Assembly (NCBI RefSeq): GCF_000026545.1
Contig: NC_011601.1
Length of the DNA: 64,000 bases
From: Escherichia coli O127:H6 str. E2348/69
Lineage (GTDB): Bacteria; Pseudomonadota; Gammaproteobacteria; Enterobacterales; Enterobacteriaceae
Direction: 5' to 3' (one strand)
Below the pieces are notes generated by a model. That model made no database searches. It had not been told where the DNA came from and worked only from the letters and a program-made list of their open reading frames with translations. This document shows, one piece after another, positions 8,158 through 50,868 of the stretch. The position numbers and the translations under genes were made by a program. Each line of letters starts with the position of its first letter. The stretch's first letter is position 1.

Positions 8158-8234
8158 TCCGTACGGTTCCTCTGTTTTTTATTCTTGCATTAATTTAGCG
8201 TCGTAATTACCCGATTTTCAAGATACTAATGAAA

Positions 8235-9535: not shown

Positions 9536-9596
9536 CGTTTCTCCTGGGTGTGGTCAGTAAAAATCTTAGCTTTTAATCATAGACCGTCTTTTGCGG

Positions 9597-10577: not shown

Positions 10578-10635
10578 GGTATCCGTTCTGCTGAAGTGTC
10601 ATGGCGTTGATTTTACGGTGACTCTTCGACAGTGA

Positions 10636-10660
10636 AAAGAAAAAAGGCCGCAGAGCGGCC
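10636..10660. repeat. attL core (direct repeat aaagaaaaaaggccgcagagcggcc)
   Basis: Identical 25-mer found again at 47095..47119; the hairpin ggccgcagagcggcc is the ihfA terminator stem. Confidence 0.85.
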
Positions 10661-10766
10661 ATAAACACAAACAAAAATCAATAAGTTAGATAATTATCAA
10701 AGACTTACAGACACACAAAAACACAGCCAACCACAACAAATAACAGGGATGTGGTCACTTTGTGGA

Positions 10767-26079: not shown

Positions 26080-26233
26080 TGCTCCCCCTGAGTAATTACA
26101 GGAAGATTACCCGCGCGCGAAACTGTTCTCCTTAACCCCCTGTTCTGGCCGTTTTCTTACAACAAAAGCCCTTTGTATCAGCCTGTTACGCTTTGCCATC
26201 ATGACTGAAGAACCAGTCAGAGGGGCAAAAACT

Positions 26234-32718: not shown

Positions 32719-33065
32719 CAACCCGCTACACAGGAATGAACCCGGACGGAACGGGAAACCTGAACGATATGGAGCACCTGAAACAGTCAGTCAGGGACAT
32801 CCTGACCACCCCGCTGGCAAGCCGGGTTATGCGACGGGAATATGGCAGCCTTGTGCCTGATTTGATTGACGAACCCATGAATAACACCACGCGTCTGCAA
32901 TGCATGAGTGCTGCCGTGATTGCGCTGACACGATGGGAACCCCGCATTGCCCTGGACGCTATCGACGTTGTCTGGAAGGCAGGAGGCCGCGCCGGGGTGA
33001 CGCTGTCGGGCACTGTCATGCAGACCATGCAGAATGTTGAATTAACCATCACGCTGAGAGAGTAA
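32715..33065 (+). CDS. W: baseplate wedge protein (GPW/gp25 family)
   Basis: 116-aa ORF; same size and position as P2 gpW. Confidence 0.8.
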   Translation: MTTRYTGMNPDGTGNLNDMEHLKQSVRDILTTPLASRVMRREYGSLVPDLIDEPMNNTTRLQCMSAAVIALTRWEPRIALDAIDVVWKAGGRAGVTLSGTVMQTMQNVELTITLRE

Positions 33066-33068
33066 ATC

Positions 33069-33965
33069 ATGCCTGCTGTTGACCTTTCCCAGTTACCGGA
33101 ACCCGCCATCATCGCGGAGCCTGATTTTGAGGCAATTCTGGCTGACACAAAGGCCATGATGATTGCGTCCTATCCTGCCGAACAGCGTGAAGCCGTCTCC
33201 GCCGCGCTGGAGCTGGAATCGGAACCCCTGAACGTTATCGCTCAAACCATGTCTTTTCGTGAAATGCTGTTACGCCAGCGGGTTAACGAGGGCGCTCGCG
33301 CCTGCATGTTAAGCCACGGTTCAGGGACAAACCTGGACAACCTCGCGGGCAATATGAACACAAAGCGCCTGGTTATCACTCCGGCAACGGATACCACCGA
33401 CGCGGTGATGGAGAGTGACACCTCGCTGAGATTGCGGGCGCAACGGGCGTATGACGGCCTGAGTGTTGCTGGTCCGTCAGGTGCATACGAGTATTTTGCA
33501 CGCAGCGCCAGCGGTCTGGTGCGTGATGCGCGGGCCATCAGCCCGTCTCCGGCCTGTGTGACGGTTTCCATCCTGTCCACTGAAGGCGACGGCACAGCAA
33601 CGGAGGCGTTGCTTAATACCGTTCGCGCCGTTCTGAATGCAGAGGATACCCGCCCGGTGGCCGACCGCCTGACCGTACAGAGCGCCAGAATCGTGACATG
33701 GCGGCTGAATGCAAAACTGTACTTTTACCCCGGCCCGGAATCCGAACCTATTCTGGCCGCGGCTGAATCGTCGTTCAGGAAGTGGCTGGCTGAGCAGGGG
33801 CTTATCGGTCAGGACGTGGCGTTGTCCGCCATTGCTGCCGCACTGCATGTGCACGGTGTGCAACGCGTGGAGATAATCGAACCCACACAGAATATGGCCA
33901 TCAGCGACATACAGGCGGCGCGCTGTGAGTCATTCACCATCAGCGAAGGTGGACGCAATGAGTAA
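33069..33965 (+). CDS. J: baseplate protein J
   Basis: 298-aa ORF; same size and position as P2 gpJ. Confidence 0.8.
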   Translation: MPAVDLSQLPEPAIIAEPDFEAILADTKAMMIASYPAEQREAVSAALELESEPLNVIAQTMSFREMLLRQRVNEGARACMLSHGSGTNLDNLAGNMNTKRLVITPATDTTDAVMESDTSLRLRAQRAYDGLSVAGPSGAYEYFARSASGLVRDARAISPSPACVTVSILSTEGDGTATEALLNTVRAVLNAEDTRPVADRLTVQSARIVTWRLNAKLYFYPGPESEPILAAAESSFRKWLAEQGLIGQDVALSAIAAALHVHGVQRVEIIEPTQNMAISDIQAARCESFTISEGGRNE

Positions 33966-34566
33966 TTCGTTGTTACCACCATCAGCCAGCAATTTCATGC
34001 GTTGTGCCGAAGCCGTCGGAACACGCATTACAGACATTCCGGTAGACCTCAACACGCTGTGGTCGCCGGACACCTGCCCGGTGCATCTGCTGCCTTATCT
34101 CGCCTGGGCATTTTCCGTTGACCGCTGGGATCGCAACTGGCCGGAAGAGACAAAGCGACAGGTGATTCGTGATGCATGGCTGATACACCGACACAAAGGG
34201 ACCATCAGCGCACTGCGAAGAGCCGTGGAGCCTCTCGGCTACCTGATTGAAGTAAAGGAGTGGTGGCAACTCAACGAGGAACCGGGAACATTTCGCATTG
34301 TTGTCGGAGTACTTGATCAGGGCATCACCGATGAAATGTATCAGGAACTTGAGCGCCTTATTGCGGATGCAAAACCAGTAAGTCGCCATCTGACGGGGCT
34401 GGCGATCAGCCTGAGTGTGAACGGAAAGATTTTCGTTGGTACGGGATGCTATCACGGCGATGCCCTGACGGTTTATCCCTACACCCCGGAGTCCATTATT
34501 GTCGAAGGGGATTATTTCCCTGCCCCAGCCATTCATTTAATTGATAATCTGAGAGTAAACGCATGA
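33958..34566 (+). CDS. I: baseplate protein I
   Basis: 202-aa product from MSNSLLPP inside the listed 33925..34566 ORF; overlaps the J stop. Confidence 0.75.
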   Translation: MSNSLLPPSASNFMRCAEAVGTRITDIPVDLNTLWSPDTCPVHLLPYLAWAFSVDRWDRNWPEETKRQVIRDAWLIHRHKGTISALRRAVEPLGYLIEVKEWWQLNEEPGTFRIVVGVLDQGITDEMYQELERLIADAKPVSRHLTGLAISLSVNGKIFVGTGCYHGDALTVYPYTPESIIVEGDYFPAPAIHLIDNLRVNA

Positions 34567-36128
34567 CAGTGAAATACTACGCCATTCTGACTAATCAGGG
34601 CGCGGCACGACTGGCTAACGCGACGATGCTCGGCAGTAAGCTGAATCTGACGCAAATGGCCGTTGGTGATGCAAATGGTGTGTTACCAACACCAGACCCT
34701 GCACAAACAAAACTGATTAACCAGAAACGCATTGCACCGCTGAATCTTCTGAGTGTTGACCCTAACAATCAGAGCCAGATTATTGCGGAGCAAATCATCC
34801 CTGAAAACGAGGGAGGATTCTGGATCCGTGAGATTGGTCTTTATGATGATGAAGGTGTACTCATTGCGGTGGCAAACTGCCCGGAAACGTACAAACCGCA
34901 GTTGCAGGAAGGCAGTGGACGCACCCAGACTATCCGCATGATTCTGGTTGTCACGAACACCGAAGCCATCACGCTGAAAATCGACCCGTCTGTGGTTCTG
35001 GCAACCCGCAAATATGTGGATGATAAAATCTCAGAGCACGAACAGTCACGACGTCACCCGGACGCCTCGCTGACCGTAAAAGGTTTTACTCAGTTAAGCA
35101 GTGCAATTAACAGTGAATCAGAAACACTGGCCGCAACACCGAAAGCGGTTAAGGCTGCATATGACCTGGCTAACGGGAAATATACCGCCCAGAACGCCAC
35201 CACTACACAAAAAGGAATTGTTCAGCTCAGTAGCGCCACGAACAGCACGTCTGAAACGCTGGCAGCGACACCAAAAGCTGTTAAGGCGGTAATGGATGAA
35301 ACGAACAAGAAAGCACCATTAAACAGCCCGGCACTGACCGGAACGCCAACAACACCAACAGCGCCACAGGGGACTAATAGTACCCAGATCGCAAGCACGG
35401 CTTTCGTTATGGCCGCGATTGCCGCACTTGTAGATTCGTCACCTGATGCACTGAACACGCTGAACGAACTGGCTGCGGCGCTGGGCAATGACCCGAATTT
35501 TGCGACCACCATGACTAACGCGCTTGCGGGTAAGCAACCGAAGGATGCCACCCTGACGGCGCTGGCAGAGCTTGCTACATCAGCAGATAAACTCCCATAT
35601 TTTACAGGGGCAGATCGTGCCGCGTTAACCGCGTTGACAAGTGTTGGACGTGCCATTCTTGGTAAAACCAGCACTCAGGGAGTTCTTGATTACCTTGGTT
35701 TGGGGGAAGGCTCTGCACTGCCCGTTGGTGTGCCCGTTCCGTGGTCCTCAGCAACACCACCAACGGGCTGGCTGAAATGTAACGGTGCAGCATTTTCTTC
35801 TGAAATGTATCCCAGACTGGCAAGGGCTTATCCCACCAATAAATTACCGGATTTACGCGGTGAATTTATCCGTGGCTGGGATGATGGGCGCGGGATTGAT
35901 GCGGGACGTACCCTGCTTTCAGGGCAGGATGGTACAAGTTTTTCTCATTACGGAGGTAATTTCGACATTGGGTCTGGTCATTCAATCAATAACTATGACC
36001 AAATTGTTTCTAACCAACCAGGCTTTTCCCGTTTTTCATTTGCAGGGCCTTCACGAGGTGATGGGGTTAATTATGTAACCATTCGTCCTCGTAATATTAC
36101 GTTTAATTACATCGTAAGGGCAGCATGA
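34563..36128 (+). CDS. H: tail fibre protein, constant N-terminal part fused to C-terminal cassette 1
   Basis: 521-aa ORF; N-terminus MTVKYYAILTNQGAARLANA typical of P2 H; internal TLAATPKAVKA repeats; C-terminal 150 aa is one of three alternative cassettes. Confidence 0.85.
   Translation: MTVKYYAILTNQGAARLANATMLGSKLNLTQMAVGDANGVLPTPDPAQTKLINQKRIAPLNLLSVDPNNQSQIIAEQIIPENEGGFWIREIGLYDDEGVLIAVANCPETYKPQLQEGSGRTQTIRMILVVTNTEAITLKIDPSVVLATRKYVDDKISEHEQSRRHPDASLTVKGFTQLSSAINSESETLAATPKAVKAAYDLANGKYTAQNATTTQKGIVQLSSATNSTSETLAATPKAVKAVMDETNKKAPLNSPALTGTPTTPTAPQGTNSTQIASTAFVMAAIAALVDSSPDALNTLNELAAALGNDPNFATTMTNALAGKQPKDATLTALAELATSADKLPYFTGADRAALTALTSVGRAILGKTSTQGVLDYLGLGEGSALPVGVPVPWSSATPPTGWLKCNGAAFSSEMYPRLARAYPTNKLPDLRGEFIRGWDDGRGIDAGRTLLSGQDGTSFSHYGGNFDIGSGHSINNYDQIVSNQPGFSRFSFAGPSRGDGVNYVTIRPRNITFNYIVRAA
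35684..35709. repeat. candidate invertase crossover site A (hix/gix/cix-like)
   Basis: ttcttgattaccttggtttgggggaa at the constant/variable junction of H; related copies at 36125.. and, inverted, at 37683.. Confidence 0.5.
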
Positions 36129-36150
36129 AAACGTTGGTTTGGGGGAAGGC
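36125..36150. repeat. candidate crossover site B (direct orientation)
   Basis: aaaacgttggtttgggggaagg at the start of cassette 2. Confidence 0.45.
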
Positions 36151-36615
36151 TCTGCACTGCCCGTTGGTGTGCCCGTTCCATGGCCCTCAGCCACGCCGCC
36201 AACGGGATGGCTGAAATGTAACGGCGCAGCATTTTCTTCTGAAAAGTACCCAAAACTGGCAAGGGCTTACCCCACCAATAAATTACCAGACTTACGCGGT
36301 GAATTTATCCGTGGCTGGGATGATGGGCGAGGAATTGATGCGGCACGCGCTTTATTGAGCATTCAAAACGGGATGTTGGAAAAACACCGCCATATTGTTG
36401 TAGCTAACGATGGATATGACACAAAGGATGAATGGGAGTTGGCCACGATTTTCAAAAAAACATATACGCAAGGCAGGGGGCTTGATGCCACAAATACAGG
36501 AGGGAGTTTGATTCCATCACCAACGCTTCATTCACGAGGAAGTATTGGTAACACAGGTGGTAGTGAAACCCGCCCCCGCAATATTGCATTTAACTATATC
36601 GTGAGGGCGGCTTAG
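36139..36615 (+). other. promoterless alternative tail-fibre C-terminal cassette 2 (direct orientation)
   Basis: The ORF begins exactly at the shared GEGSALPVGVPVPW block and ends with the shared PRNIAFNYIVRAA tail; central 70 aa differs from cassette 1. Confidence 0.7.
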
Positions 36616-36621
36616 TTATAT

Positions 36622-37233
36622 TCAACTGGCTGCTGCCAGTGGTATTTCCGGCAAGTTGATATCTGGTGCCATGTTTATATCCATTGCGTTCAGCGCGTCT
36701 ATATAATCCAGCACGGCATTAAGCCGGGTGGTTTCTGCCTGCGTCAACTTCCGCCCGGCCTGCAACTTCAACTGAATCAGACTTATGGAAGCCATTGCCG
36801 CATCAGCCAGTGACTGGCGCTTGGTTTCTGCCGCTTCTACTGCAGCACGATGTTGTGCCTCAGTATCTGTCACCCATTTTTCACCATCCCATTTATCGTA
36901 TGGTGTTAACGGGGCGATAGTGGTTGTATTTTTCGGGTAGTCACCCAGCGCCGTGATTTCTTCGGTGTTTCCCGTGTCAGTGCTATAGACGGTTTCACCA
37001 CGATGGTCTGGCGCATACTCCCATGAGCTTAAATTCTCCGAACGGCGGATAGCATAGCCCGCTTTATGTGCGCCCGGGGCATCTAAACAGGAATTTGCCG
37101 GAATACCGACACCCACAGCAAGATATTCAGTTGATTCGGAAATATATTCCCGTGTCTCACCATCATAGTTATAAACGACGATGTTTCCTGCCTGTACGGC
37201 AATAAGGTCATCATTTAATATCGCGTTATTCAT
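36622..37233 (-). CDS. tail fibre assembly chaperone (Tfa/gpG-like)
   Basis: 203-aa ORF immediately downstream of, and co-oriented with, cassette 3; phage Tfa-like N-terminus. Confidence 0.75.
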   Translation of the reverse strand: MNNAILNDDLIAVQAGNIVVYNYDGETREYISESTEYLAVGVGIPANSCLDAPGAHKAGYAIRRSENLSSWEYAPDHRGETVYSTDTGNTEEITALGDYPKNTTTIAPLTPYDKWDGEKWVTDTEAQHRAAVEAAETKRQSLADAAMASISLIQLKLQAGRKLTQAETTRLNAVLDYIDALNAMDINMAPDINLPEIPLAAAS

Positions 37234-37700
37234 TATGCGGTTCTCACAATATAATTGAAGGCAATATTGCGTGGGTGGGTTTCATTCCCCTCTGAGGATT
37301 CCGTTCTGTATTGACTGGTAAATCTACCGTTAATTGCACCTTGCCGGACGGCGTTATCTGTCGACAACAGACTATCCCCTCCTTTGTCATTTGGCACCAA
37401 CACCGTGTTATCCCACGCATCCCATGACCGAATATTATGATAATGACTTCCTGTTAACCACCCCTGCATGCTTAAGATGCCCCTTCCGGCATCCACCCCG
37501 CGCCCATCATCCCAGCCACGGATAAATTCACCGCGTAAATCCGGTAATTTATTGGTGGGGTAGGCCTTTGCCAGTTTTGGGTACATTTCAGAAGAAAATG
37601 CTGCACCGTTACATTTCAGCCACCCTGCTGGCGGTGTGGCTGAGGGCCACGGAACAGGTACACCAACGGGCAGTGCAGAGCCTTCCCCCAAACCAACGTT
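37233..37700 (-). other. alternative tail-fibre C-terminal cassette 3 (inverted orientation)
   Basis: Minus-strand ORF (listed 37233..37748) encodes the same GEGSALPVGVPVPW ... PRNIAFNYIVRTA frame with a distinct central segment. Confidence 0.7.
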
Positions 37701-37708
37701 TTCGTTTT
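37683..37708. repeat. candidate crossover site C (inverted orientation)
   Basis: Reverse complement reads aaaacgaaaacgttggtttgggggaa. Confidence 0.45.
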
Positions 37709-37762
37709 TATCCCTACCTATACCAACTCTGTATTTTTCACGAAACAAAGAGGATGTTTTTT

Positions 37763-38362
37763 ATGCAAATTGGCTATATTCGTGTGTCAACAAATGACCA
37801 GAACACGGATTTACAACGCAATGCACTGAACTGCGCAGGATGTGAACTGATTTTTGAAGATAAAATCAGCGGAACGAAATCAGCCAGACCGGGATTGAAA
37901 AAACTGCTCAGAACGCTATCAGAAGGAGATACGCTGGTTGTCTGGAAGCTGGACAGACTGGGCAGAAGTATGAAACACCTGATCACGCTTATTGAGGAAT
38001 TGCGGGAAAAAGGTGTTAATTTCCGTAGTCTGACGGACAGCATTGACACATCAACACCCATGGGGCGTTTCTTTTTTCACGTCATGGGGGCTTTAGCCGA
38101 AATGGAACGTGAATTAATTGTAGAGCGTACACTGGCCGGGCTGGCAGCAGCACGCGCACAAGGACGCATTGGCGGACGTCGCCCGAAGTTGACAAAAGAA
38201 CAACACGAGCAAATAGCGAGGCTGATTAAAAACGGTCATGACAGGAAACAACTGGCGATCATTTACGACATCGGCATATCGACGATTTATCGTTATCACC
38301 CTGTAGGCGATATACAGGCTGAAGAAACAACCAGGCAGACTCAGGAAAATAAAAACCGCTAA
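37763..38362 (+). CDS. serine recombinase DNA invertase (Gin/Cin/Pin/Hin family)
   Basis: 199-aa product MQIGYIRVSTNDQNTDLQRNAL ... LVVWKLDRLGRSMKHL ... GRIGGRRPKLT, near-colinear with Mu Gin; the listed ORF 37568..38362 includes a spurious upstream extension. Confidence 0.92.
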   Translation: MQIGYIRVSTNDQNTDLQRNALNCAGCELIFEDKISGTKSARPGLKKLLRTLSEGDTLVVWKLDRLGRSMKHLITLIEELREKGVNFRSLTDSIDTSTPMGRFFFHVMGALAEMERELIVERTLAGLAAARAQGRIGGRRPKLTKEQHEQIARLIKNGHDRKQLAIIYDIGISTIYRYHPVGDIQAEETTRQTQENKNR

Positions 38363-38381
38363 TCTGACCATTAGCGGTTTT
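38354..38381. terminator. bidirectional hairpin between the convergent invertase and U genes
   Basis: aaccgctaat-ctgacc-attagcggtt inverted repeat flanked by A/T runs. Confidence 0.55.
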
Positions 38382-38388
38382 GCGTTAA

Positions 38389-38883
38389 TCAAAACAGCCC
38401 TTTAACGGAGCTGGCCGCGCTGTTAAGGGATGATGTGACCTTATCTTTGAAGCCGGACAGCATATCACTGAACGATGAGGATTGCAGGCGCTCCCGCAAA
38501 TCCTCATCACAGCGTTCAAGAGTCAGTGAAAATTCTATCTTTTTCGCCTTACCGTAGCGATCAAACTCGGAACGGGTCGTATTCGTTTCAGTCAGTACAT
38601 ACATGCCGTAAATCTGCCCGACACCATCAATCAGAGGCCAGGGGCGTCCTGTATATGCCTGCGTGGTCAGCAACGAAAGCGACACTTCGCCACCTGTAAT
38701 TTCAGGATAAAGCACGCCGGAAAGCACGATGCGATCATCACCTGCGCCGATATACTGCCAGCTTGCTGAACGGTTAACGCGTTCATTTTTCACATGCCGC
38801 CAGCTTTTGTTTTGCTGTAACTGCTGATGCGGCAATGTGCGCAGCTCAAAAACAAACATGCCGTAGATCATCATCATGGCCAT
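38389..38883 (-). CDS. U: tail protein U
   Basis: 164-aa ORF; strong parallel to P2 gpU (MMM..G.FVF ... LSGVLYPE.TGG ... AWPLI.G.G.IYGM.V ... IDFSLTL.R.DE). Confidence 0.88.
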   Translation of the reverse strand: MAMMMIYGMFVFELRTLPHQQLQQNKSWRHVKNERVNRSASWQYIGAGDDRIVLSGVLYPEITGGEVSLSLLTTQAYTGRPWPLIDGVGQIYGMYVLTETNTTRSEFDRYGKAKKIEFSLTLERCDEDLRERLQSSSFSDMLSGFKDKVTSSLNSAASSVKGLF

Positions 38884-38889
38884 GACTCC

Positions 38890-41733
38890 TCAATCTTTAT
38901 CGTAAAAACTGCCACGTCCGGCACGGTCGCGTCGTTCCAATTCTGCCCTGACCATTTCACCGACCAGTTTCGCCAGTTTGCGGGGATTCTGCGTAACAAC
39001 GTTATGCAGATGAACATGAATTTCACCGCCAAATCCGGAGACAACAGGCTCCCGGTTACGGGAAGTTGCAGGAACTGATGCCACTGGCGATCGTATGGCC
39101 TCCGCCACCGGGCGGGAGCTGGCCGCAACAACAGGGACCAGCGCCGGAGGCAGAGGAGTCGGGACCACGGGTGTGATGTTGATTGCGGAAGCAGGCTTAC
39201 TGACCTGCGCAATCTTCCGCTCCTGCCACTCCCCACGAACAGCAAGTGCGCGGGGCAGATTCTTAAAGACAATATCGCCGGGGCCAATGCGTTTTTTCGT
39301 CTCATCAACCAGCTTACCTGTGTTATCAGCAATTTTGCTGAGTCTGCGTAGCGTACCGGTATTGCTGTCTGTGAGCGGTTTGTTGTCTTTGGGTTTATCA
39401 CCTCCGGTGCCATTGCCATTTTCCACAGGCTTCGGCGGATTGATTTTCGCCAGGTCCCCCTGAAGCAAGGCAACCTTGTCCTGAAGAATGGCCGCACGCT
39501 GTGCGTCTTCGATTTTCTTGCGCGCCCTTTCCGCTTCATCCGGAAGGACGCCAAGTTTTTCAAGTATCCACGCCAGCGTATCCAGTAGCATTTTTGCAGG
39601 CGTCAGAACAAGTTGTAACGCACCGCCAAGAACGTTACCGAATATCTCGCCAGCACTGGTACATTTATCCAGCGTTTCCTTGCTGGACTCCATCGGTGAC
39701 AGCAGCGATTTAAACCAGTTAAACACCTGGCTGATCCCGCTTCCGATTGCGTCAAAAACAGGACCAAACCGTTCAAAGGTTTCGCGCAACGGGGCCAGCC
39801 TTTCCATAATCCCGCTGAACACCCCGGCAAAAAATGCCCTGATGGGATCCCAGTATTTCCAGATAAGAACGGCAGCTCCGGCAAGTGCAGCCACGATAAG
39901 ACCAACCGGACTGAACAGCGCCCCGATAGCGCCTCCCAGTAAAGAAACGGAACCCGTCACCATTCCCCATAGTGCTGGCAGGACCCTGACAGCATTCATT
40001 GATCCGGTCAGGAGAGAAAAACCAAGACGCAGTTTTGCCAGCGGACCAGCAAGCACACCAATAGCCAGCGACAACGAGCCAACCGTTGCAGTCATTGCCA
40101 GCAACGCACCGCCTGCTATCAGTAGCTGGCGCGTCAGTGCCGGATGGGCCTGCGCCAGCGCCGTCACCCTTGATACCACCCGCGTGAGCCACTGCGTGAC
40201 AGAACGCAGCGGACCGTCAATCAGATCTGCAATGCGGATGCGCAACCCTTCCCATGCACTGCCGAGTGATTTCAGATCGCCGTCAAGGTTGTTGGCCATA
40301 ACCTTTGCTGTGCGTTCAGCCTCACCGCGCGCGCCTTCAAGTTCTTTTCTCAGTTTGGGTAAGGAACCGTCACCCGCTGCATCAACGAGCGCCATAAACG
40401 ATGTGAAAGCCTCTTCTCCGGCAATGTCCTTAAAGAACGATACCCGGTCAACTTCCCCGTATTTGCGGGTGGCTTTATAAAGGTCGGCCAGCACATCCTC
40501 CATCGGGCGCATTTTGCCCCCGGCATCCGAGACGGACACGCCCAGCTCTTTCAGAGCTTCTGCCGCCGCCTTTGGCGGTGATGCCAGACGAGCCAGGCTG
40601 GCACGCATTGCCGTCCCGGCATCACTCCCTCTGATGCCCATATTCGCCAGCACGCCAGCCATCGCTGCGGCCTGCTCCAGCGATATTCCCAGCTTACCCG
40701 CCACCGGACCTGCATATTTCATGGTTTCGCCCAGTGCGCGAAGGTCAGTGTTGGTACGGGTAAACGCTGCGGTGAGTGTGTCACCGACCCGGTCCATCTG
40801 GTCAGCAGAAAGGCCGAACTGCGTCAGGATATTTGAGCCAATATCTGCCGTCTCGCCGAGATCCATACCGCCAGCCGTTGCCATGCTCAGCACTCCGGGA
40901 AGCGCAGCCTGAATGGCCTGCGGTGTGAAGCCAGCCATTGCAAGAAATGCCTGCCCACTGGCGGCATCGCCTGCGGTGAACTGCGTTTCAGAGCCAAGTT
41001 TTAACGCCTGCTCACGCAGCGCCTTAAACTGCGGGCTGTTCTGGTCGATTCGCGTCAGCGCCTGAACGCGGGACATCTCTTTGCCGAACCCGATCGCGGG
41101 CTGCAAAAAACGCCCGGCAGCATAGCCGCCCGCCGCTGCCGCACCAATTGCCAGCGCACCACCTGTTTTCAGTTTTCCCGCGGTTTCCTGCGCGCGCGAA
41201 TACCGCTCACGCGCCCGCGTTACACGCGCAAGCGCCTGCCGTTCGCGTTCAAGCTGGTTGTTGTACTGTTCGGTGCGTCTGATGGCCTGCTGGATGGTGT
41301 TATCGCTGCCTGTCAGGGAAATGCCGTGGCGTTTCAGCTCTCCGCCAAGTTCCCGCATTTTCTGAATTTCCCGTGTGCGCGATTCATTCAGGCGTTCAAG
41401 CCGGGTGCTTAACTGCTGCATCAGCTTTTGTTGTTTTTCGCTGAGCACTGTACCCGTGCGTTGTAACTGATTAAGAGCGTTAAGCTGGCGTCGTGCTTTC
41501 AATATGCCAGCATCCGCTTTACTGACAGCGTCACGGGCGCGCTCAAATGAACGCGCCTGACGCTCGAGATTTTTGATCGCCCCCTGCGTTCGCTGGATGG
41601 AGTCACCAAACTGCCCCATCAGGCGGCGGGCGTTTTCGGCAGGCCGGGTCAGCCTGTCAACGGCGCTGAAAGCGACCCGGATATCAAGAGTCTTCATTGT
41701 CTGTATTCCCGCTGCGAAGTGCCGCCCGCTCAC
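38890..41733 (-). CDS. T: tail tape measure protein
   Basis: 947-aa Ala/Gly/Leu-rich ORF with coiled N-terminal region; position after E/E'. Confidence 0.85.
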   Translation of the reverse strand: MSGRHFAAGIQTMKTLDIRVAFSAVDRLTRPAENARRLMGQFGDSIQRTQGAIKNLERQARSFERARDAVSKADAGILKARRQLNALNQLQRTGTVLSEKQQKLMQQLSTRLERLNESRTREIQKMRELGGELKRHGISLTGSDNTIQQAIRRTEQYNNQLERERQALARVTRARERYSRAQETAGKLKTGGALAIGAAAAGGYAAGRFLQPAIGFGKEMSRVQALTRIDQNSPQFKALREQALKLGSETQFTAGDAASGQAFLAMAGFTPQAIQAALPGVLSMATAGGMDLGETADIGSNILTQFGLSADQMDRVGDTLTAAFTRTNTDLRALGETMKYAGPVAGKLGISLEQAAAMAGVLANMGIRGSDAGTAMRASLARLASPPKAAAEALKELGVSVSDAGGKMRPMEDVLADLYKATRKYGEVDRVSFFKDIAGEEAFTSFMALVDAAGDGSLPKLRKELEGARGEAERTAKVMANNLDGDLKSLGSAWEGLRIRIADLIDGPLRSVTQWLTRVVSRVTALAQAHPALTRQLLIAGGALLAMTATVGSLSLAIGVLAGPLAKLRLGFSLLTGSMNAVRVLPALWGMVTGSVSLLGGAIGALFSPVGLIVAALAGAAVLIWKYWDPIRAFFAGVFSGIMERLAPLRETFERFGPVFDAIGSGISQVFNWFKSLLSPMESSKETLDKCTSAGEIFGNVLGGALQLVLTPAKMLLDTLAWILEKLGVLPDEAERARKKIEDAQRAAILQDKVALLQGDLAKINPPKPVENGNGTGGDKPKDNKPLTDSNTGTLRRLSKIADNTGKLVDETKKRIGPGDIVFKNLPRALAVRGEWQERKIAQVSKPASAINITPVVPTPLPPALVPVVAASSRPVAEAIRSPVASVPATSRNREPVVSGFGGEIHVHLHNVVTQNPRKLAKLVGEMVRAELERRDRAGRGSFYDKD

Positions 41734-41920
41734 GCCAGCTAACCACTTCGCCGGGAGTCATCATGAAGATTTCGGCGGGCGACCAGTTAAAAATGGTGGC
41801 AATATCCGCCACCAGATCTTCGATGTGCTCAAAGCACACCAGGGTGATTACGCTGCCGTCTCCTGCACGCTCTTCGCGCCAGAGTCTGGCTCGCTCATAA
41901 AATTTACAGCCACAGCGCAC
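41684..41920 (-). other. E' extension frame (read via -1 frameshift from E)
   Basis: ORF in the -1 frame overlapping the 3' end of E and the start of T, as in P2 E+E'. Confidence 0.6.
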
Positions 41921-42222
41921 AACTGAATAAAATCGCGTGACGACATTTTTTTAATCATCACTTCATCCAGTTGTGGCGAGGTCACGCGAGGCAACAGCGT
42001 GAACATGGTATCCGCTTTCAGATTCAGCACATCAGACAGCGACAGACCACGCAGGGATCCCGCCTGCTCAATAGCCCCGGTGATCTCCACATATGTGATT
42101 TTTTCGGCACCACGCTCAATTGGCCGGGAAAGTTTTACACCACGTTCGACAGCCATATCCTCACCTGCCGTCACATCATCCGCTACGGTGTTATTCCGGG
42201 TTTCAGTATCGATATTTTTCAT
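41848..42222 (-). CDS. E: tail assembly chaperone E
   Basis: Parallels P2 gpE (LRGxSL ... LLPRxTxPxL); the true start may be the internal Met about 22 codons in. Confidence 0.75.
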   Translation of the reverse strand: MKNIDTETRNNTVADDVTAGEDMAVERGVKLSRPIERGAEKITYVEITGAIEQAGSLRGLSLSDVLNLKADTMFTLLPRVTSPQLDEVMIKKMSSRDFIQLCAVAVNFMSEPDSGAKSVQETAA

Positions 42223-42277
42223 CAGTTGTCTCCTTTTCAGTCAGAGGCGACGCACTGCGCCGCCTGCATATTACTTA

Positions 42278-42790
42278 TCAGCCAAGCCCGAGCGCGGAAC
42301 GGATGCGATCGGGCACAATGTCCTTGCCGTCCTTCCGGTAAATGAAGTTCAGCAGGTCAATCTCCCACAACGGACGATCGTTAACACTCAGCTTGTAGTA
42401 GGTGTTTTTAATGGCGTAAGTGTGTGATGTGGCTTCGCCCTGTTTGGCTTCCCCCATATCAATTTCCGTCACACGTCCGCGCATTTCGACTTCATACAGG
42501 TCGCTTTCTGCATCGGTGTAATATTCACCCGCAAAACGCAGCAGCGTGCCGTCAATCGTGCCGCCATACTTAAGGAACAGCTCACGAACTGCGCCCCCCA
42601 TGACAAAGCTCGCATCAAGCGCGGAGTCGTCCAGACCGAGATCAATACTTACCGCCCCCATCATGCCACCACCCCGGTAGCTGTCGGTTTTGCGCGTCAG
42701 CTTAGGCAGGGTGACGGACGTCACCTTACCCACTTCGTTTTCACCATCCACAAACAGCGTAAAAAAGCGAAGATGTTTTGGCACAGCCAT
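42278..42790 (-). CDS. FII: tail tube protein
   Basis: 170-aa ORF; same size and position as P2 FII. Confidence 0.85.
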   Translation of the reverse strand: MAVPKHLRFFTLFVDGENEVGKVTSVTLPKLTRKTDSYRGGGMMGAVSIDLGLDDSALDASFVMGGAVRELFLKYGGTIDGTLLRFAGEYYTDAESDLYEVEMRGRVTEIDMGEAKQGEATSHTYAIKNTYYKLSVNDRPLWEIDLLNFIYRKDGKDIVPDRIRSALGLG

Positions 42791-43974
42791 CAGGCACCTC
42801 CCAGCACCGCAAATGCGGGTTCAAAGTATTCATCAGTAAACGTCTGGTAAAGCTCCATGTCTTCCAGTGGCGGAACGGGCGTATATTTGTAGCGAATACG
42901 CACACGCCCCTGACGTAAATCCGTGGTGCTGTTATCCACCACGTCATACCAGCACTCCGCGCCAATCAGTTTCCCGGCAGTCACCAGTGAATCCAGTTTT
43001 GCCCTGATGGCACTGATAACATCCTTCACGTTCGCAGGCGTCAGTGGACTGTCGATGGTTTCAAACTGCGCTTCCGCAATTGAATCAGCCAGCACCTGTG
43101 CGGTTCGGGTATACACCTCAAAGATGTAGGCGTTCGTTTCCGGTGTGCGGTTGCCCCAGAAGCGGAACCCGTTGCGACGAATAATGGTCGTGATTTCTTT
43201 GTTGTTGAGGCTGTTGGCATCGCTGTCTTCGGCCTGCAACGACCAGAACACATGCCTCGACATCCCCAGCACATTTTTAACCGGAACGTTGGACAGTGAT
43301 TTGTGCCAGCCCTGCTCATGGTCAATGTACGCACGAAGGCCGCACGCATAGGCAGGCGCGGGGAACGTTTCGTTTTTGCCACTTTTCGGGTTGTAGGCGA
43401 TGAAGTCCGGCCATAAGAGCATCACCTCACGTTCGTTGAATTTCTGGCGGTAGGTAATCGCATCAGCCATCGTGTCACAGCCATGACATGAGGCATACAC
43501 AAACGCGCGCAGTTTACCCGCAATCACGCACAGGGATTTTGTCACCGCCTCCGTGTCCAGCTCCGGCGCGGCCAGAATACGCGGACGGTATCCGATGCTT
43601 TCATCCTGCTCTGCAACAAGCAGCGCATACATCCCCGTATAGCTGCCGTCAGATTCAGAACCACCGATAACCAGTTGATCCTGCGTCTTTCCGTCTTCTT
43701 CTTTGTGTTCAGCCACGCGAACGACGATCACCTTTGTGCTCACCTGGTCTGCGATAGCCTTAAGCGCACGATAAAGCGTCCCCGTTGTCCCGCATTTTCC
43801 CAGCACGTCATTGACGCGGGTCAGCAGTGTGGGCTTGTTCAGCGGGAACAGCTTCGCGTCCGCATCATCCGCCGTTGCCACGATACCGATAACACTGGAA
43901 TCAACATCATTAATCGCTGTTACCAGGTCGGTATTTTCCGTAACACGGGCACCATGAAAACGAGTTTCACTCAT
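42790..43974 (-). CDS. FI: contractile tail sheath protein
   Basis: 394-aa product from MSETRFHGARV inside the listed 42790..44148 ORF; colinear with P2 FI (KLRAF.Y.S..GC, GWHK.LSNV, RR.GFRFWGNRT, YTRTAQV.AD, YTPVPPLE). Confidence 0.9.
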   Translation of the reverse strand: MSETRFHGARVTENTDLVTAINDVDSSVIGIVATADDADAKLFPLNKPTLLTRVNDVLGKCGTTGTLYRALKAIADQVSTKVIVVRVAEHKEEDGKTQDQLVIGGSESDGSYTGMYALLVAEQDESIGYRPRILAAPELDTEAVTKSLCVIAGKLRAFVYASCHGCDTMADAITYRQKFNEREVMLLWPDFIAYNPKSGKNETFPAPAYACGLRAYIDHEQGWHKSLSNVPVKNVLGMSRHVFWSLQAEDSDANSLNNKEITTIIRRNGFRFWGNRTPETNAYIFEVYTRTAQVLADSIAEAQFETIDSPLTPANVKDVISAIRAKLDSLVTAGKLIGAECWYDVVDNSTTDLRQGRVRIRYKYTPVPPLEDMELYQTFTDEYFEPAFAVLGGA

Positions 43975-44131
43975 AGCTTCAGCCCCTTGTATCCGTAAAA
44001 TGATTCGGCAACAATCATCACCCACCACGCGCGTAATCTCACCCCTGCGCCGTTCTCCCGACCCGGCGACAACAAAAAGCAGTAACCCCCTCCGCACGCA
44101 CATGCGACCATGCCGCACAGGGAGGGAACAG

Positions 44132-45232
44132 ATGACCGATACCACCATGCAATTGCTCAGTCAGGGCACAGACCCCGTGAAAATGCCGGATTTTGATATT
44201 CTCGCGGAGGGTAAAACGCTGTCAGGCGTGGCAGAGCGCCTGATGAGCCTGTCACTGACCGACAACCGGGGATTTGAGGCGGACCAGCTCACCATCACGC
44301 TGGATGATGCGGATGGTCAGTTGCAGCTACCGCCACGGGGCGCGCGCCTGACGGTTCTCATTGGCTGGAAAGGAGAACCGCTGACAGAAAAAGGCACTTA
44401 CATTGTTGATGAAATCGCTCACGAAGGACCGCCGGACAGGCTGACTGTTTCAGCCAGAAGCGCAGATTTTCGGGATGAATTTAACGTTAAACGTGAGGTG
44501 TCCTGGCATGATGTGACCGTTGAGCGCGTGGTATCTGCCATCGCTCATCGGTACGGTCTGAAACCGCAAATCAGCGAAATACTGATGGATATCGAAATCG
44601 ACCACGCCGACCAGACCGAAGAAAGCGACATGTCCTTCCTTACGCGCATGGCGGAAATGCTGGGCGCAATCACCACGGTAAAAAGCGGTAATCTGTTATT
44701 CATCATGCCAGGCGGTCGCGTGAACGCACTGGGCCAGCCGTTGCCATCGTTCGCCATCACACGCAGCAGCGGCGATCGCCATCAGTTCCGCATTGCTGAC
44801 CGCGAGGCGTATACGGGTGTACGCGCCTACTGGCTTGATCTTAATTACGGGAAAAAGAAAAAAGTCAGCGTGAAACGCCGCAAACCGAAAAAAGAGAAAA
44901 GCAGCAGCCGTGAAGGTGACTATATGGAAGGTGCGGAAGGCAACGTGTTTGTGTTACGCAAAACTTATCAGAACGAGCAGGCAGCAAGACGCGCAGCGGC
45001 GGCAAAATGGCAGCAGCTACAACGCGGAGCCGCATCATTTTCCATCACGCTGGCACGTGGACGAGCAGAACTCTACCCCGAAATGCATGGCACGGTAACA
45101 GGATTTAAAAGCGAGATTGATAATCAGGACTGGATCATTGCAAAAGCCGAGCACACCATTGATAACAGTGGCTTTACCACGCAGCTTGAGCTTGAAGCCA
45201 AAATCCCGGAATGGATAGCAGAAACAGAGTAA
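44132..45232 (+). CDS. D: tail protein D (late control D / baseplate hub family)
   Basis: 366-aa product from MTDTTMQLLSQG with gggaggga RBS, inside the listed 44000..45232 ORF; position before ogr. Confidence 0.75.
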   Translation: MTDTTMQLLSQGTDPVKMPDFDILAEGKTLSGVAERLMSLSLTDNRGFEADQLTITLDDADGQLQLPPRGARLTVLIGWKGEPLTEKGTYIVDEIAHEGPPDRLTVSARSADFRDEFNVKREVSWHDVTVERVVSAIAHRYGLKPQISEILMDIEIDHADQTEESDMSFLTRMAEMLGAITTVKSGNLLFIMPGGRVNALGQPLPSFAITRSSGDRHQFRIADREAYTGVRAYWLDLNYGKKKKVSVKRRKPKKEKSSSREGDYMEGAEGNVFVLRKTYQNEQAARRAAAAKWQQLQRGAASFSITLARGRAELYPEMHGTVTGFKSEIDNQDWIIAKAEHTIDNSGFTTQLELEAKIPEWIAETE

Positions 45233-45402
45233 ACAACTTAGATGCATTAGCCCTGACATTTGCTAACGCGCTTACAGCAAGAATCATAACCAATCTGACA
45301 GCCTACCCGGTGTCAAAATCAGAAGAGCCTTACATTAGAATATGTTAATTTGTAGCAAACAAATTTACACACAAATGATTACTGCTGAAATAGCCCCCAT
45401 AA

Positions 45403-46092
45403 ATGCCATGTCAAAGGATCCATGTTATGAATATGCAAATTTTTATCGCACCAGCAGCCACAGTTGCTGCAGTCTGCCTTGCTGCATATTTTGCTTTACG
45501 AAATGAACGTAAAAAGAAAGCACTTGAGATTAGAACAACTCAACTAGATCGAATATCTGAGCTAGTAAACCGAGCATCTACCAATTTGATGCAATATACA
45601 GGTACTCTTGCCTCTATACTGGAAGCGCACGCCAAAGATAATTATCTACCGAACAAAAAATTTGACATTAATGTAATTAGCAAATGGAAAGATTGCCTCG
45701 ATGAGAGTGAGGTCTGGGCGATTGATATACAGCAACTAAGAACATGTCAGCACAGTCTGGAGTTTCATCGTGAAAAAGAATGGGCTGAATGGAAAAAAAT
45801 AATTCCACCATTACTTGATAAAATTAACCAATTTTTTCTCATATCTAAGCCAGGGCAACCTGTTACGTTTATAAATGGCCAAAACAAAACAGCTGATGAA
45901 CTACTTGTTTTCTCAAGATATTTGAGAAAACAAACAGCAGAAATTGAATCAGTACGTCAGCTGTTACTTTCTCAAATGAGAGAGGAATTCATCGAGTTAA
46001 CTAGCTTTGAACCTGTCACAATGTTTAGCTTATTTAAATCAATAAAGAAAAATGTCATGCAATTTTTCTGTATCAGTGCTCTTAAAAATTGA
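45403..46092 (+). CDS. hypothetical membrane-anchored protein (AT-rich moron between D and ogr)
   Basis: 229-aa ORF; one N-terminal TM helix (IFIAPAATVAAVCLAAYFAL) followed by a Lys/Glu-rich soluble domain; strongly AT-rich codons; the start may be an internal Met (MNMQ). Confidence 0.55.
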   Translation: MPCQRIHVMNMQIFIAPAATVAAVCLAAYFALRNERKKKALEIRTTQLDRISELVNRASTNLMQYTGTLASILEAHAKDNYLPNKKFDINVISKWKDCLDESEVWAIDIQQLRTCQHSLEFHREKEWAEWKKIIPPLLDKINQFFLISKPGQPVTFINGQNKTADELLVFSRYLRKQTAEIESVRQLLLSQMREEFIELTSFEPVTMFSLFKSIKKNVMQFFCISALKN

Positions 46093-46241
46093 CGCTCTGT
46101 TGCAAGCAACCCCAGTGTTAAACTGGGGTTATTCTTGCTAAGAGACCTTTCTACGGCATCAGTAAACAAAACGAACTATCAGTTGGAGTCTGAGCAAGTT
46201 CAGCCTAAACTAGCGACAGCACTACGTTAAGGGAGGTCGCT

Positions 46242-46502
46242 ATGTTCCGTTGTCCGCTTTGTGGCGCATCTGCCCGTATCCGCACCAGTCGTCCGGAAAA
46301 TGATTCAAACACCGTGCGGCAAAAGTATTACCAGTGTAACAACCTGGAATGCGGCGTATGCTTCTCAACACTGGAAGCTTTCCATAAATTCACATCGAAA
46401 CACGCCTCCGGCATCCACTCTTCAGAAGGTATCCCGTGGCATGAGCTGCCAGCTTCACACAGGGGAAACAATCAGATGAGCTTGCCTTTACCTCAGAATT
46501 AA
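46242..46502 (+). CDS. ogr: late gene activator, Ogr/Delta zinc-finger family
   Basis: MFRCPLCGASARIRTSR ... YYQCNNLECGVCFSTLE matches the P2 Ogr CxxC-N-CxxxxC pattern. Confidence 0.85.
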   Translation: MFRCPLCGASARIRTSRPENDSNTVRQKYYQCNNLECGVCFSTLEAFHKFTSKHASGIHSSEGIPWHELPASHRGNNQMSLPLPQN

Positions 46503-46562
46503 CAGGCAGAATTGCCGGAGTAACAAAAACGCGATAGATTACGCGCGGGTGCCTTTCGGCTG

Positions 46563-46775
46563 ATGGTCGGAGGGAATACCCGAAGGCCAGATGTGGAAAG
46601 GCCCCGGAAAACATCTCTGTTTAACCGAGGCCCTAACCGCATTACCTTGACAAGTGAAAGGTTAGCGCCTCTCCGGAAAAGGAGCAAGTGCTATGTCGCA
46701 AAAATCGCTTACGGCCATCACGTTCTGCGTGACGGCAATCCTCATCATCTGGATGTTGCACGGTTCGCTGTGTGA
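46563..46775 (+). CDS. mok-like overlapping leader reading frame of the hok-type locus
   Basis: 70-aa ORF overlapping the hok-like gene in another frame, as in hok/mok/sok loci. Confidence 0.4.
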   Translation: MVGGNTRRPDVERPRKTSLFNRGPNRITLTSERLAPLRKRSKCYVAKIAYGHHVLRDGNPHHLDVARFAV

Positions 46776-46833
46776 AATACGGATGAGCTTCTGGGGAGCG
46801 GAGTTTGCGGCGTTCTTACAGTGTAAGCAGTAA
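46693..46833 (+). CDS. Hok/Gef-family type I toxin (small membrane protein)
   Basis: 46-aa ORF MSQKSLTAITFCVTAILIIWMLHGSLCEIRMSFWGAEFAAFLQCKQ: one TM helix, then the Hok-family SLCEIR and AAF motifs; ggag RBS upstream; not in the ORF track (under 60 aa). Confidence 0.7.
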   Translation: MSQKSLTAITFCVTAILIIWMLHGSLCEIRMSFWGAEFAAFLQCKQ

Positions 46834-46922
46834 GGAAACCGCGACGGGGGAGCAATCCCCCGTCAATCGGTTGCCAGGGTAAGGTCGATAAGGCACCCTA
46901 TCTCACAGACATGAACAACAAA

Positions 46923-46954
46923 CCCGCAGCATAAAAACTGCGGGTTTTCTTTTT
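46923..46954 (+). terminator. rho-independent terminator near the prophage right end
   Basis: cccgcag-cataaaaa-ctgcggg followed by ttttcttttt. Confidence 0.65.
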
Positions 46955-47094
46955 GGTGTCCTCACCGACTTGAAACAGTGATCAGACTATAAGACAAAGC
47001 CCACAATGTAGCGGGCTTACTCCCCTCCCCCCACTAAATGTGGACGCATCGTGGAACGAAGAGATATAAAACATTATAAATCAATTAGTTATTG

Positions 47095-47119
47095 AAAGAA
47101 AAAAGGCCGCAGAGCGGCC
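47095..47119. repeat. attR core (direct repeat) overlapping the ihfA terminator
   Basis: Same 25-mer as at 10636..10660; on the minus strand it gives the ggccgctctgcggcc hairpin plus T-tract just downstream of ihfA. Confidence 0.85.
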
Positions 47120-47136
47120 TTTTTAGTTAGATCAGA

Positions 47137-47436
47137 TTACTCGTCTTTGGGCGAAGCGTTTTCGACCCGGCTTTTTAACTTCTGCCCGGGTCTGAAGGTC
47201 ACCACGCGCCGTGCTGTAATGGGAATATCCTCGCCCGTTTTCGGGTTACGTCCCGGGCGTTGATTCTTATCACGCAGATCGAAGTTACCAAAACCAGAGA
47301 GTTTCACCTGTTCGCCGTTTTCCAGAGCGCGACGGATCTCTTCGAAAAACAGTTCAACCAGTTCTTTGGCATCCCGCTTGCTAAGCCCAAGCTTATCAAA
47401 CAGATATTCTGACATTTCAGCTTTTGTAAGCGCCAT
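47137..47436 (-). CDS. ihfA: integration host factor alpha subunit
   Basis: 99-aa [41 protein letters not shown]... recognised as IHF-alpha. Confidence 0.95.
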
Positions 47437-47440
47437 AGGT

Positions 47441-49831
<2,391 letters not shown>

Positions 49832-49842
49832 CTATTCCTGCC

Positions 49843-50868
<1,026 letters not shown>

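Follow-up and report, generated by a model that had tools for sequence, protein, structure and literature searches.

In the record of bacteriophage P2, FI, FII, E, E', T, U, D and ogr lie co-directionally in that order, with one start site (PF) for the F operon, which runs with V..G, ends in D and carries an annotated -1 frameshift in E+E'. A preliminary description of the locus examined here had used this order as its reference, and the P2 record agreed. The packaging and capsid genes of P2 are driven by the divergent pair PP/PO, for which the record gives a single activator site serving both pO and pP; the centre of its TGT-N12-CCA core is 55.5 bp away from both annotated starts. The published consensus of P2 late promoters is TGT-N12-ACA (PMC3931495). 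In Stenotrophomonas phage Smp131, tail genes were shuffled between late operons, and the TGT-N12-ACA promoters and a shared PP'/PO' site were kept (PMC3931495). Smp131 is a precedent for rearranged late operons in P2-like phages; however, it swaps members of the V and F operons, and no inversion of FI..U against D has been reported for it.

Closer to the present locus are P88, which is plaque-forming, has a burst size of about 65 and has been imaged by electron microscopy (PMC5285337), and phiSM, which is released spontaneously, forms plaques and lysogenises (PMC6456863). The late tail layout described below was already known from these and other sequenced phages. The inversion was not mentioned in the papers on P88, phiSM, SEN4 and Serratia PP4/KSP20, although an earlier description in print may exist, and the literature searched contained no description of a bidirectional-promoter architecture between FI and D. 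What is modestly new in our study is an in-silico case that the FI/D gap may reuse the one-site, two-direction design of P/O.

Gene content and orientation of the late tail region

The window analysed, a 64-kb stretch of the E. coli E2348/69 chromosome, contained a P88-like prophage of the genus Xuanwuvirus. Membership in this genus followed from 94.7-96% DNA identity to P88 over 74% of a 10.6-kb query, a figure that refers to that query rather than to the full prophage, together with equal gene order and strands. The identities and strands of the genes were taken from PHROG matches and from the RefSeq annotation of a 100%-identical record, NZ_LT903847.1.

The genes V-W-J-I-H were annotated in RefSeq on the plus strand at 32152-36128, ending with the tail fibre gene H (34563..36128; PHROG tail fibre families and RefSeq), the final plus-strand late gene ahead of an invertible segment. 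A plus-strand serine DNA invertase gene of the Hin/Gin/Cin/Pin type followed at 37763..38362 (phrog_125 DNA invertase, E = 5e-100; annotated as a recombinase family protein). The next block, all on the minus strand, consisted of the tail gene U (38389..38877; phrog_76 tail protein, E = 5e-75), the tape measure gene T (38890..41697; phrog_28, E = 8.5e-217), the tail assembly chaperone gene E (41848..42222; phrog_103, E = 3e-36), the tail tube gene FII (42278..42790; phrog_55, E = 8e-60; annotated as phage major tail tube protein) and the tail sheath gene FI (42790..43974; phrog_23 tail sheath, E = 3e-128), and the annotation concurred for each of them. The E' extension was read from the sequence in the -1 frame at 41684..41905 on the minus strand, where a GpE family protein was annotated at 41684-41839. 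The true start of FI was at 43974 rather than at the start of the longer open reading frame, 44148, and its product was 99% identical to the P88 sheath. On the plus strand followed D, the tail/baseplate hub protein also called 'late control D' (44132..45232; phrog_52, E = 2e-164; 366 aa, intact), and ogr (46242..46502), annotated as a zinc-finger late activator of the Ogr/Delta family.

PHROG, RefSeq and BLASTP to P2 gpD and Ogr gave a complete tail set of the P2 type (FI, FII, E/E', T, U, D) and an Ogr-family activator, in an order that departed from the canonical P2 map. The FI-U block (38389-43974) sat between the invertase gene and D on the minus strand, and V..H and D-ogr were on the plus strand. 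That FI..U diverges from D, as the preliminary description had read from the letters, was borne out by both sources of annotation. The P2 F operon has these genes too, in an identical internal order and with a -1 frameshift arrangement of E/E'; unlike in P2, FI..U was inverted, D was separate and the terminator was probably common to the invertase gene. The divergent FI/D region spanned 43975..44131 as described earlier, but its length was 157 bp, not 158 bp.

Over invertase-U-T-E-FII-FI-D, P88 (NC_026014) and phiSM were 94.7-96% identical to the window in DNA, with the same order and strands, and their 157-bp FI/D gap was nearly identical. They differed from the window prophage in the tail-fibre/invertible segment and in integration context, which for the window prophage adjoins ihfA/pheT. 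A moron between D and ogr (45427-46092) was absent from P88.

From its sequence, the F operon looked intact. The sequence A_AAT_TTT at 41905-41899 is a candidate -1 slippery heptamer, and no stop interrupted the -1 frame across the GpE domain up to the T start; a programmed frameshift at the heptamer would yield E+E', as in P2. The D product was full length and 49% identical to P2 gpD across residues 19-366, and it was also annotated with 366 aa in a second assembly of the strain, NZ_CP059840.2.

Distribution and origin of the inverted block

The inverted layout was found in the plaque-forming phages P88 and phiSM, in four Peduoviridae genera beyond Xuanwuvirus (Novemvirus, Reipivirus, Reginaelenavirus and Senquatrovirus) and in Serratia phage KSP20. 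The arrangement was identical in P88, phiSM, P884B11, 500465-2, PhiR44_2 and Chuche, with 92-96% DNA identity, and was also present in SEN4, KSP20, Kp4848-1, phiT5282H, 3LV2017 and ST16-OXA48phi5.4. A 1.5-kb query spanning the FI/D junction was intact in 1115 of 5426 complete E. coli genomes, roughly one in five. In the tblastn lists, about 47 phage records had sheath identities of 55% or more, and in all of them D was adjacent, on the opposite strand and 150-220 bp away. CP052639.1 was considered as an exception and rejected, as its FI-N/D junction was kept and the break was a secondary one inside the sheath gene. The canonical order was found in the nearest of the other phages checked, namely YenM_42.18 and ENT90 (both with about 50% sheath identity), Kp4845-2 and P2.

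The inverted block is an old lineage trait of a group of sequenced, working P2-like phages and not a recent rearrangement, because all checked sheaths at least 55% identical have the layout, while the checked canonical phages reach at most 50.5%. This settled a choice that the preliminary description had left between an inversion ancestral to a sub-lineage, with which the five ICTV genera, KSP20 and the E. coli genomes agreed, and a product of recombination; the same distribution spoke against a rearrangement peculiar to this genome. Close relatives with the same orientation that are demonstrably active phages, named there as evidence against a rearrangement, exist in P88 and phiSM. In a neighbour-joining tree of sheaths, the inverted group formed a single branch; the SEN4 sheath was 55-59% identical to the inverted group, nearly as distant from it as from canonical phages (53-55%). 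By parsimony on this small tree, we infer one single inversion event. The ancestor of a Peduoviridae clade comprising Xuanwuvirus, Novemvirus, Reipivirus, Reginaelenavirus, Senquatrovirus and KSP20 would have inverted exactly the FI-FII-E/E'-T-U block, and every descendant would have kept the inversion.

The block could instead have been gained by recombination from another contractile-tail element, landing in the opposite orientation by chance, with no inversion in place. Mosaic exchange is common among phages, and identity between the sheath of the clade and the sheaths of P2, ENT90 and YenM_42.18 was just 45-50%. However, D, which lies outside the block, showed the same divergence step (62-76% identity within the clade, at most 52% outside) as the sheath (55-76% within, at most 50.5% outside). 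Because these identity steps match, the block and its neighbour D appear to have diverged together. The gene content and internal order of the block were also exactly those of P2, and we regard acquisition of the module as quite unlikely.

The only argument for a mis-orientation of the block during assembly was the difference from the P2 map. Complete E2348/69 assemblies made independently of one another agreed on the orientation, and so did over 1000 further complete E. coli genomes and phage genomes whose DNA came from virions, leaving an artefact with a negligible probability. Annotation of P2-like prophages should allow for late tail regions of two kinds, of which the inverted one is normal in P88-like phages and their relatives and does not indicate decay, misassembly or invertase activity.

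The adjacent invertase and the shared hairpin

The invertible tail-fibre segment (36127..37703) was bounded by crossover sites TTCCCCCAAACCAACGTTTTC at 36127-36147 (minus strand) and 37683-37703 (plus strand), which formed inverted repeats. A third, diverged site lay within H at 35688-35708. These were the only real sites in the window (at 35688, 36127 and 37683), three matches against an expectation of 0.02. The invertase is active in E2348/69, because the tail-fibre segment was in opposite orientations in two assemblies of this same strain.

This activity, and the position of the invertase gene directly against the left end of FI..U, would be in keeping with a recent strain- or prophage-specific inversion, perhaps by the invertase at secondary crossover sites flanking the block, as had been proposed from the sequence. 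The orientation of the F block, however, was the same in both strain assemblies and throughout the five genera and the 1115 E. coli genomes, and SEN4, phiT5282H and 3LV2017 had the block inverted but no adjacent invertase gene. At the invertase/U and FI/D junctions, a search for crossover-like sites returned only chance-level matches, the best with 11-12 of 21 bp, a score that more than 800 window positions equalled. The proposal of a secondary site thus failed at both junctions and in the relatives lacking the invertase, and we consider a recent inversion, by the invertase or otherwise, highly improbable relative to the ancestral one.

Between the invertase gene and U, a terminator scan and RNA folding identified a hairpin with a 12-bp stem at 38352..38381 (-15.7 kcal/mol, z = -3.8; none of 200 shuffles was as good), with the A-run AAUAAAAA upstream and a T-run (UUUUG) downstream. 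It is likely a bidirectional intrinsic terminator common to the invertase gene and the F operon. The preliminary description had the F operon converge on the invertase gene behind a shared hairpin, and the hairpin proved real and stably folded.

The FI/D gap as a candidate divergent late promoter

It had also been proposed that D needs a promoter of its own. D must have one because no upstream plus-strand operon reaches it, and the motifs described next support this in silico. Across the five genera, the FI/D gap was 151-157 bp long, and its conservation in the alignment was concentrated in three blocks. One of them held a candidate Ogr-type activator site, TGT-N12-AGA, at 44054..44071 on the minus strand (centre 44062.5), inside GCTTTTTGTTGT-N12-AGAAC. 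The site was one base from the consensus. Perfect TGT-N12-ACA occurred 11 times in the whole window against 16 expected, with none in any late-promoter region, and the FI/D motif surfaced only on allowing one mismatch and on comparing the P/O gap and the relatives. No comparable late-promoter dyad was found upstream of V. The prophage ogr product was 42% identical to P2 Ogr by BLASTP, with the CX2C...CX4C motif kept.

Each of the seven genomes compared had the dyad as TGT-N12-A(C/G)A, and in KSP20, 3LV2017 and SEN4 it was the perfect TGT-N12-ACA. Its position was fixed while the flanks had diverged: the distance was 68.5-76.5 bp to the D ATG and 81.5-88.5 bp to the FI ATG. Because these genomes are related, conservation alone could overstate function. 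Starts were placed 55.5 bp to each side of the dyad centre, and the -12..-7 hexamers were read from there. On the FI side, this gave a predicted -10 hexamer GATGAT (44014..44019, minus strand), with a predicted start near 44007 and a 33-nt leader; the hexamer was GATGAT, GATTAT, GAATAT or AATGAT in 6/7 genomes, and in 3LV2017 the -12..-7 positions read CGATGA, which is GATGAT shifted by one base. On the D side, the predicted hexamer was GACCAT (44106..44111, plus strand), with a predicted start near 44118 and a 14-nt leader containing a GGGAGGG ribosome-binding site; GACCAT, AACCAT, AATCAT, GATCCT or GACGAT occupied this position in every genome, and the predicted leader was short throughout (13-21 nt).

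As in the P2 F operon, the FI start, where predicted, was preceded at about 55 bp by an Ogr-type dyad, here a candidate one; as in P2 PP/PO, the two divergent late operons lay about 150 bp apart with one dyad midway. The P2 PP/PO core is TGT-N12-CCA and that of FI/D is TGT-N12-AGA, and the P2 site and starts were annotated from experiments, whereas those of FI/D are sequence predictions. We infer Ogr binding, the two start sites and the service of both directions by one site. The 157-bp gap would then be a bidirectional Ogr-dependent late promoter of a design like P2 P/O, with a single dyad-symmetric activator site (centre 44062.5) about 55 bp from two starts. The leftward start would read FI..U and end at the bidirectional hairpin beside the invertase gene, and the rightward start would read into D. 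FI/D would drive tail genes, in contrast to the packaging and capsid genes driven by PP/PO.

The layout could also be a lineage trait in which FI and D have no common activator site but separate ones, or promoters of another kind, for example an Ogr-independent sigma-70 promoter for D. The dyad was asymmetric, its two sides reading TTTTTGTTGT and AGAAC, the predicted D leader was very short, and a second, imperfect inverted repeat, TTGTATCCG-N10-CGGCAACAA, was noted by eye closer to FI, at 43987-44014. That repeat, however, was unconserved outside Xuanwuvirus, and the sole TGT-N12-ACA-like element in the gap, with one mismatch allowed, was the conserved block. A sigma-70 consensus scan of 37500-46700 gave four matches against 7.7 expected, none of them inside the gap, and the -10-like hexamers were symmetric about the single dyad, as at P2 P/O. 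We judge separate control of FI and D to be unlikely. An ancestral clade-wide inversion joined to a bidirectional Ogr-dependent FI/D promoter is, as one joint explanation, probable. On balance, we also lean towards the fuller proposal that the ancestral F-operon inversion in five Peduoviridae genera may have made a second bidirectional late promoter, at which one dyad would drive both sheath-to-U and a monocistronic D. If borne out, the proposal would illustrate how a 5.6-kb late operon can be inverted in a phage while staying under Ogr control, and D, the last F-operon gene in P2, would here have been placed under its own promoter.

Comparison with the P/O gap

The reference bidirectional late promoter of the prophage, in the divergent terminase (P)/scaffold (O) gap, contained the extended motif GCTTTTGTTGT-N12-AGAAC at 26144..26161 on the minus strand. 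GCTTTT(T)GTTGT-N12-AGAAC had only two copies in the window, one in the FI/D gap and one in the P/O gap. The P/O and FI/D sites matched within a given phage, and in 3LV2017 both were TTGTGGCA-N6-TCACAAC.

Descent of the FI/D gap from the P/O gap by duplication was considered and set aside. The alignment of the two gaps was colinear in 3LV2017, pairing P with D and O with FI (z = 7.5). In the window, the two orientations were nearly equal (z = 4.3 and 4.4), and the dyad aligned in the pairing opposite to that of 3LV2017 (P~FI, O~D). The resemblance between FI/D and P/O is read as a probable shared promoter architecture rather than as proven common descent.

Orientation of the F block

The window contains a P2-family prophage, a member of the P88-like phage group, whose right end adjoins ihfA/pheT. 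The window comes from the E2348/69 chromosome (enteropathogenic E. coli O127:H6). Positions 36000-50000 were 100% identical to NZ_LT903847.1, and the gene map was based on PHROG profile matches and the RefSeq annotation transferred from that identical record. V-W-J-I-H (32152-36128, plus strand) is followed by an invertible tail-fibre segment (about 36127-37703) and a serine invertase gene (37763-38362, plus strand). The F block lies on the minus strand, comprising U (38389-38877), T (38890-41697), the E' extension (41684-41839), E (41848-42222), FII (42278-42790) and FI (42790-43974), while D (44132-45232), a low-GC moron (45427-46092), ogr (46242-46502) and hok (46693-46833) return to the plus strand. 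In the P2 record, by contrast, the genes FI FII E E' T U D ogr run in the same direction as V..G, with one F-operon start site upstream of FI. The PHROG matches, the RefSeq annotation and the P2 record thus confirmed the preliminary description, in which the block ran opposite to the P2 order; the divergent FI/D gap was also present, with a length of 157 bp instead of the 158 claimed.

The moron between D and ogr (GC 0.40) encodes a 221-aa hypothetical protein with no PADLOC match, carries a terminator-like hairpin of its own (46108-46130), and is lacking in P88. A low-GC gene pair (19494-22777) adjoining the portal gene matched the anti-phage defence proteins IetA (E = 4e-89) and IetS (E = 7e-41), and occupies the cargo position, where accessory genes sit in P2-like prophages.

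Distribution and age of the inverted layout

A megablast search of phage genomes with positions 36000-46600 recovered the same stretch at 92-96% identity in Escherichia phage P88 (type of the genus Xuanwuvirus), Xuanwuvirus P884B11 and Citrobacter phage phiSM, among others; further matches were phages 520873, 500465-2, 503458, PhiR44_2 and Chuche. P88 and phiSM are annotated with an arrangement identical to that of the window here: the invertase on the plus strand, U, T, E', E, FII and FI on the minus strand and D on the plus strand. The two are active as phages. For P88, induction, plaque formation, a burst of about 65 and EM images are on record (PMC5285337), and phiSM is released spontaneously, forms plaques and lysogenises K-12 (PMC6456863). 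When phage records were searched by tblastn with the sheath and D, every record with a sheath of at least 55% identity (n = about 47) carried D on the opposite strand, 150-220 bp off, and D was at least 62% identical in those records. Annotated maps of a further five phages confirmed the layout, with D diverging from FI FII E E' T U; these are Salmonella phage SEN4 (Senquatrovirus), Serratia phage KSP20, Enterobacter phage phiT5282H (Novemvirus), Klebsiella phage 3LV2017 (Reginaelenavirus) and Klebsiella phage ST16-OXA48phi5.4 (Reipivirus). The closest other phages checked had the canonical order: Yersinia vB_YenM_42.18 (Firavirus) and Erwinia ENT90, both with a sheath identity of about 50%, Kp4845-2 and P2. 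A small neighbour-joining tree of sheath proteins placed the inverted genomes on a single branch, with SEN4 deepest.

The occurrence of the layout in the reference genomes of five ICTV genera and in KSP20 supported a trait ancestral to a sub-lineage, one of two origins that had been proposed, and much older than the genus. The synteny comparison with P2-like relatives, in which the active phages P88 and phiSM share the orientation, likewise indicated a lineage trait. A rearrangement peculiar to this genome was not supported, as close relatives and 1115 of 5426 complete E. coli genomes carry the same layout. In those 1115 genomes a 1.5-kb query spanning the FI/D junction was intact at 95% identity or more, and therefore both an assembly error and a strain-specific rearrangement were ruled out.

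The layout has been in public genomes since 2009 (KSP20, E2348/69) and 2014 (P88), P2-like phages with rearranged late operons and conserved Ogr-type promoters are documented, e.g., Smp131 (PMC3931495), and in P2 the annotation of the P/O gap, between the terminase (P) and scaffold (O) genes, already gives the divergent late promoters a common site. The inverted layout is therefore classed as already known. No remark on the inversion of FI..U was found in the literature searched, which did not reach the likeliest source, Casjens & Grose 2016. The sole increment of this study is the argument, drawn from sequence, for a second late promoter that would serve both directions from a shared site.

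Some deposited records showed irregularities. CP052639.1 (Klebsiella, labelled plasmid; 7509-10854) holds a relative with a split sheath gene, the N-terminal part still divergent from D and the C-terminal part lying with FII..U beyond ogr, as a result of a secondary rearrangement or else of misassembly. IS100/IS21-family genes are annotated inside the matched tail region of NC_049344.1 (520873) and NC_049341.1 (503458); the sheath match was partial in 520873 (83% coverage, two sheath annotations) and in four pieces in 503458, and these deposited "phages" may be defective. GenBank product names in the phiSM record (OR565851.1, 14024-16475) are seemingly shifted by one gene, such that "late control gene D protein" stands against the sheath and "ogr/Delta-like zinc finger" against D. 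A long, non-contractile tail was described for phiSM, though the genome encodes a sheath (PMC6456863).

The invertase and its crossover sites

Crossover sites of the invertase, TTCCCCCAAACCAACGTTTTC, were located in the window at 35688 (three mismatches), 36127 and 37683, where 0.02 such matches were expected by chance. Two of these sites share one orientation and the third is opposite, forming a tail-fibre shufflon (35688-37703). The tail-fibre segment was opposite in two E2348/69 assemblies, fusing H to different C-termini and assembly proteins, and therefore the invertase is active in E2348/69; the F block had the same orientation in both assemblies. An invertase-mediated inversion at a secondary site, as had been suggested, was not supported: a search for crossover-like sites covering the invertase/U junction and the FI/D gap gave a best match of only 11-12 of 21 bases, a level equalled at more than 800 window positions. 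SEN4, phiT5282H and 3LV2017 carry the inverted block without an adjoining invertase. The invertase was rejected as the cause of the inversion. In ENT90 (2133-3754), a DNA invertase gene fragment lies directly upstream of the sheath gene of a canonical F operon; an invertase beside the F operon is thus no mark of the inverted layout.

Integrity of the F block, D and the probable terminator

By its sequence, the F block appears functional. A candidate slippery heptamer, A_AAT_TTT, lies at 41905-41899, and from it the -1 frame stays free of stops across the GpE domain as far as the start of T. The D ORF (44132-45232) is intact, encoding 366 aa as annotated in NZ_CP059840.2, and aligned over its full length with P2 gpD (residues 19-366, 49% identity). 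NZ_LT903847.1 annotates D shortened to 44441-45232, plus a spurious antisense pseudogene. Between the invertase gene and U lies a strong hairpin (38352-38381; 12-bp stem, -15.7 kcal/mol, z = -3.8) with an A-run on one flank and a T-run on the other, as expected of a bidirectional terminator, in agreement with the proposal that the F operon and the invertase gene converge on a shared hairpin.

A putative bidirectional late promoter

No plus-strand gene lies within 5.7 kb upstream of D, and D therefore needs its own promoter, as the preliminary description held. The published consensus of P2 Ogr-dependent late promoters is TGT-N12-ACA (PMC3931495); neither a perfect copy of it nor a sigma-70 consensus was found in the FI/D gap (43975-44131), and a one-mismatch search gave a single candidate dyad at 44054-44071, reading GCTTTTTGTTGT-N12-AGAAC on the minus strand. 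The prophage's own P/O gap carries GCTTTTGTTGT-N12-AGAAC at 26144-26161, and the extended motif occurs nowhere else in the 64 kb. In the P2 record, a single "activator binding site; pO, pP promoters" lies between the divergent P and O starts, with a TGT-N12-CCA core centred at 3071.5, 55.5 bp from each start (3016, 3127).

A comparison across the FI/D gap took in KSP20 and members of the five genera, seven genomes in all; the gap length was steady at 151-157 bp. All seven had a TGT-N12-A(C/G)A dyad (perfect TGT-N12-ACA in KSP20, 3LV2017 and SEN4) at a constant position, the distance to the ATG being 68.5-76.5 bp for D and 81.5-88.5 bp for FI. Invariant alignment columns formed three clusters: a GC-rich one towards D, the dyad, and GA(T/A)(G/T)AT...GAACTCA towards FI. 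The P/O and FI/D sites of one phage were more alike than the sites of different phages; in 3LV2017 the two share the sequence TTGTGGCA-N6-TCACAAC, and the whole gaps aligned colinearly (z = 7.5).

When starts were placed 55.5 bp from the dyad centre, after P2, the -12..-7 windows of both directions met conserved -10-like hexamers. For FI these were GATGAT, GATTAT, GAATAT or AATGAT in six of seven genomes, the 3LV2017 window being CGATGA, which is GATGAT displaced by one base; on the D side, GACCAT, AACCAT, AATCAT, GATCCT or GACGAT occurred in all seven. The main rival explanation is that the FI and D directions use separate elements. We infer instead a late promoter that serves both directions through a single activator site, because of the conserved dyad, the symmetric hexamers, the likeness to P/O and the prophage's Ogr homologue, which is 42% identical to P2 Ogr and retains the cysteine motif. 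From such a promoter, transcription would start leftward near 44007 into FI..U and rightward near 44118 into D. Over the seven genomes, the FI leader is predicted at 26-33 nt and the D leader at 13-21 nt.

At the S-V position, P2 has a terminator, orf30 and the promoter PV, whereas the window has a spacing of only 11 nt (32140-32152), and no Ogr-type dyad was found there upstream of V. In this lineage, the O operon may simply continue through V..G.
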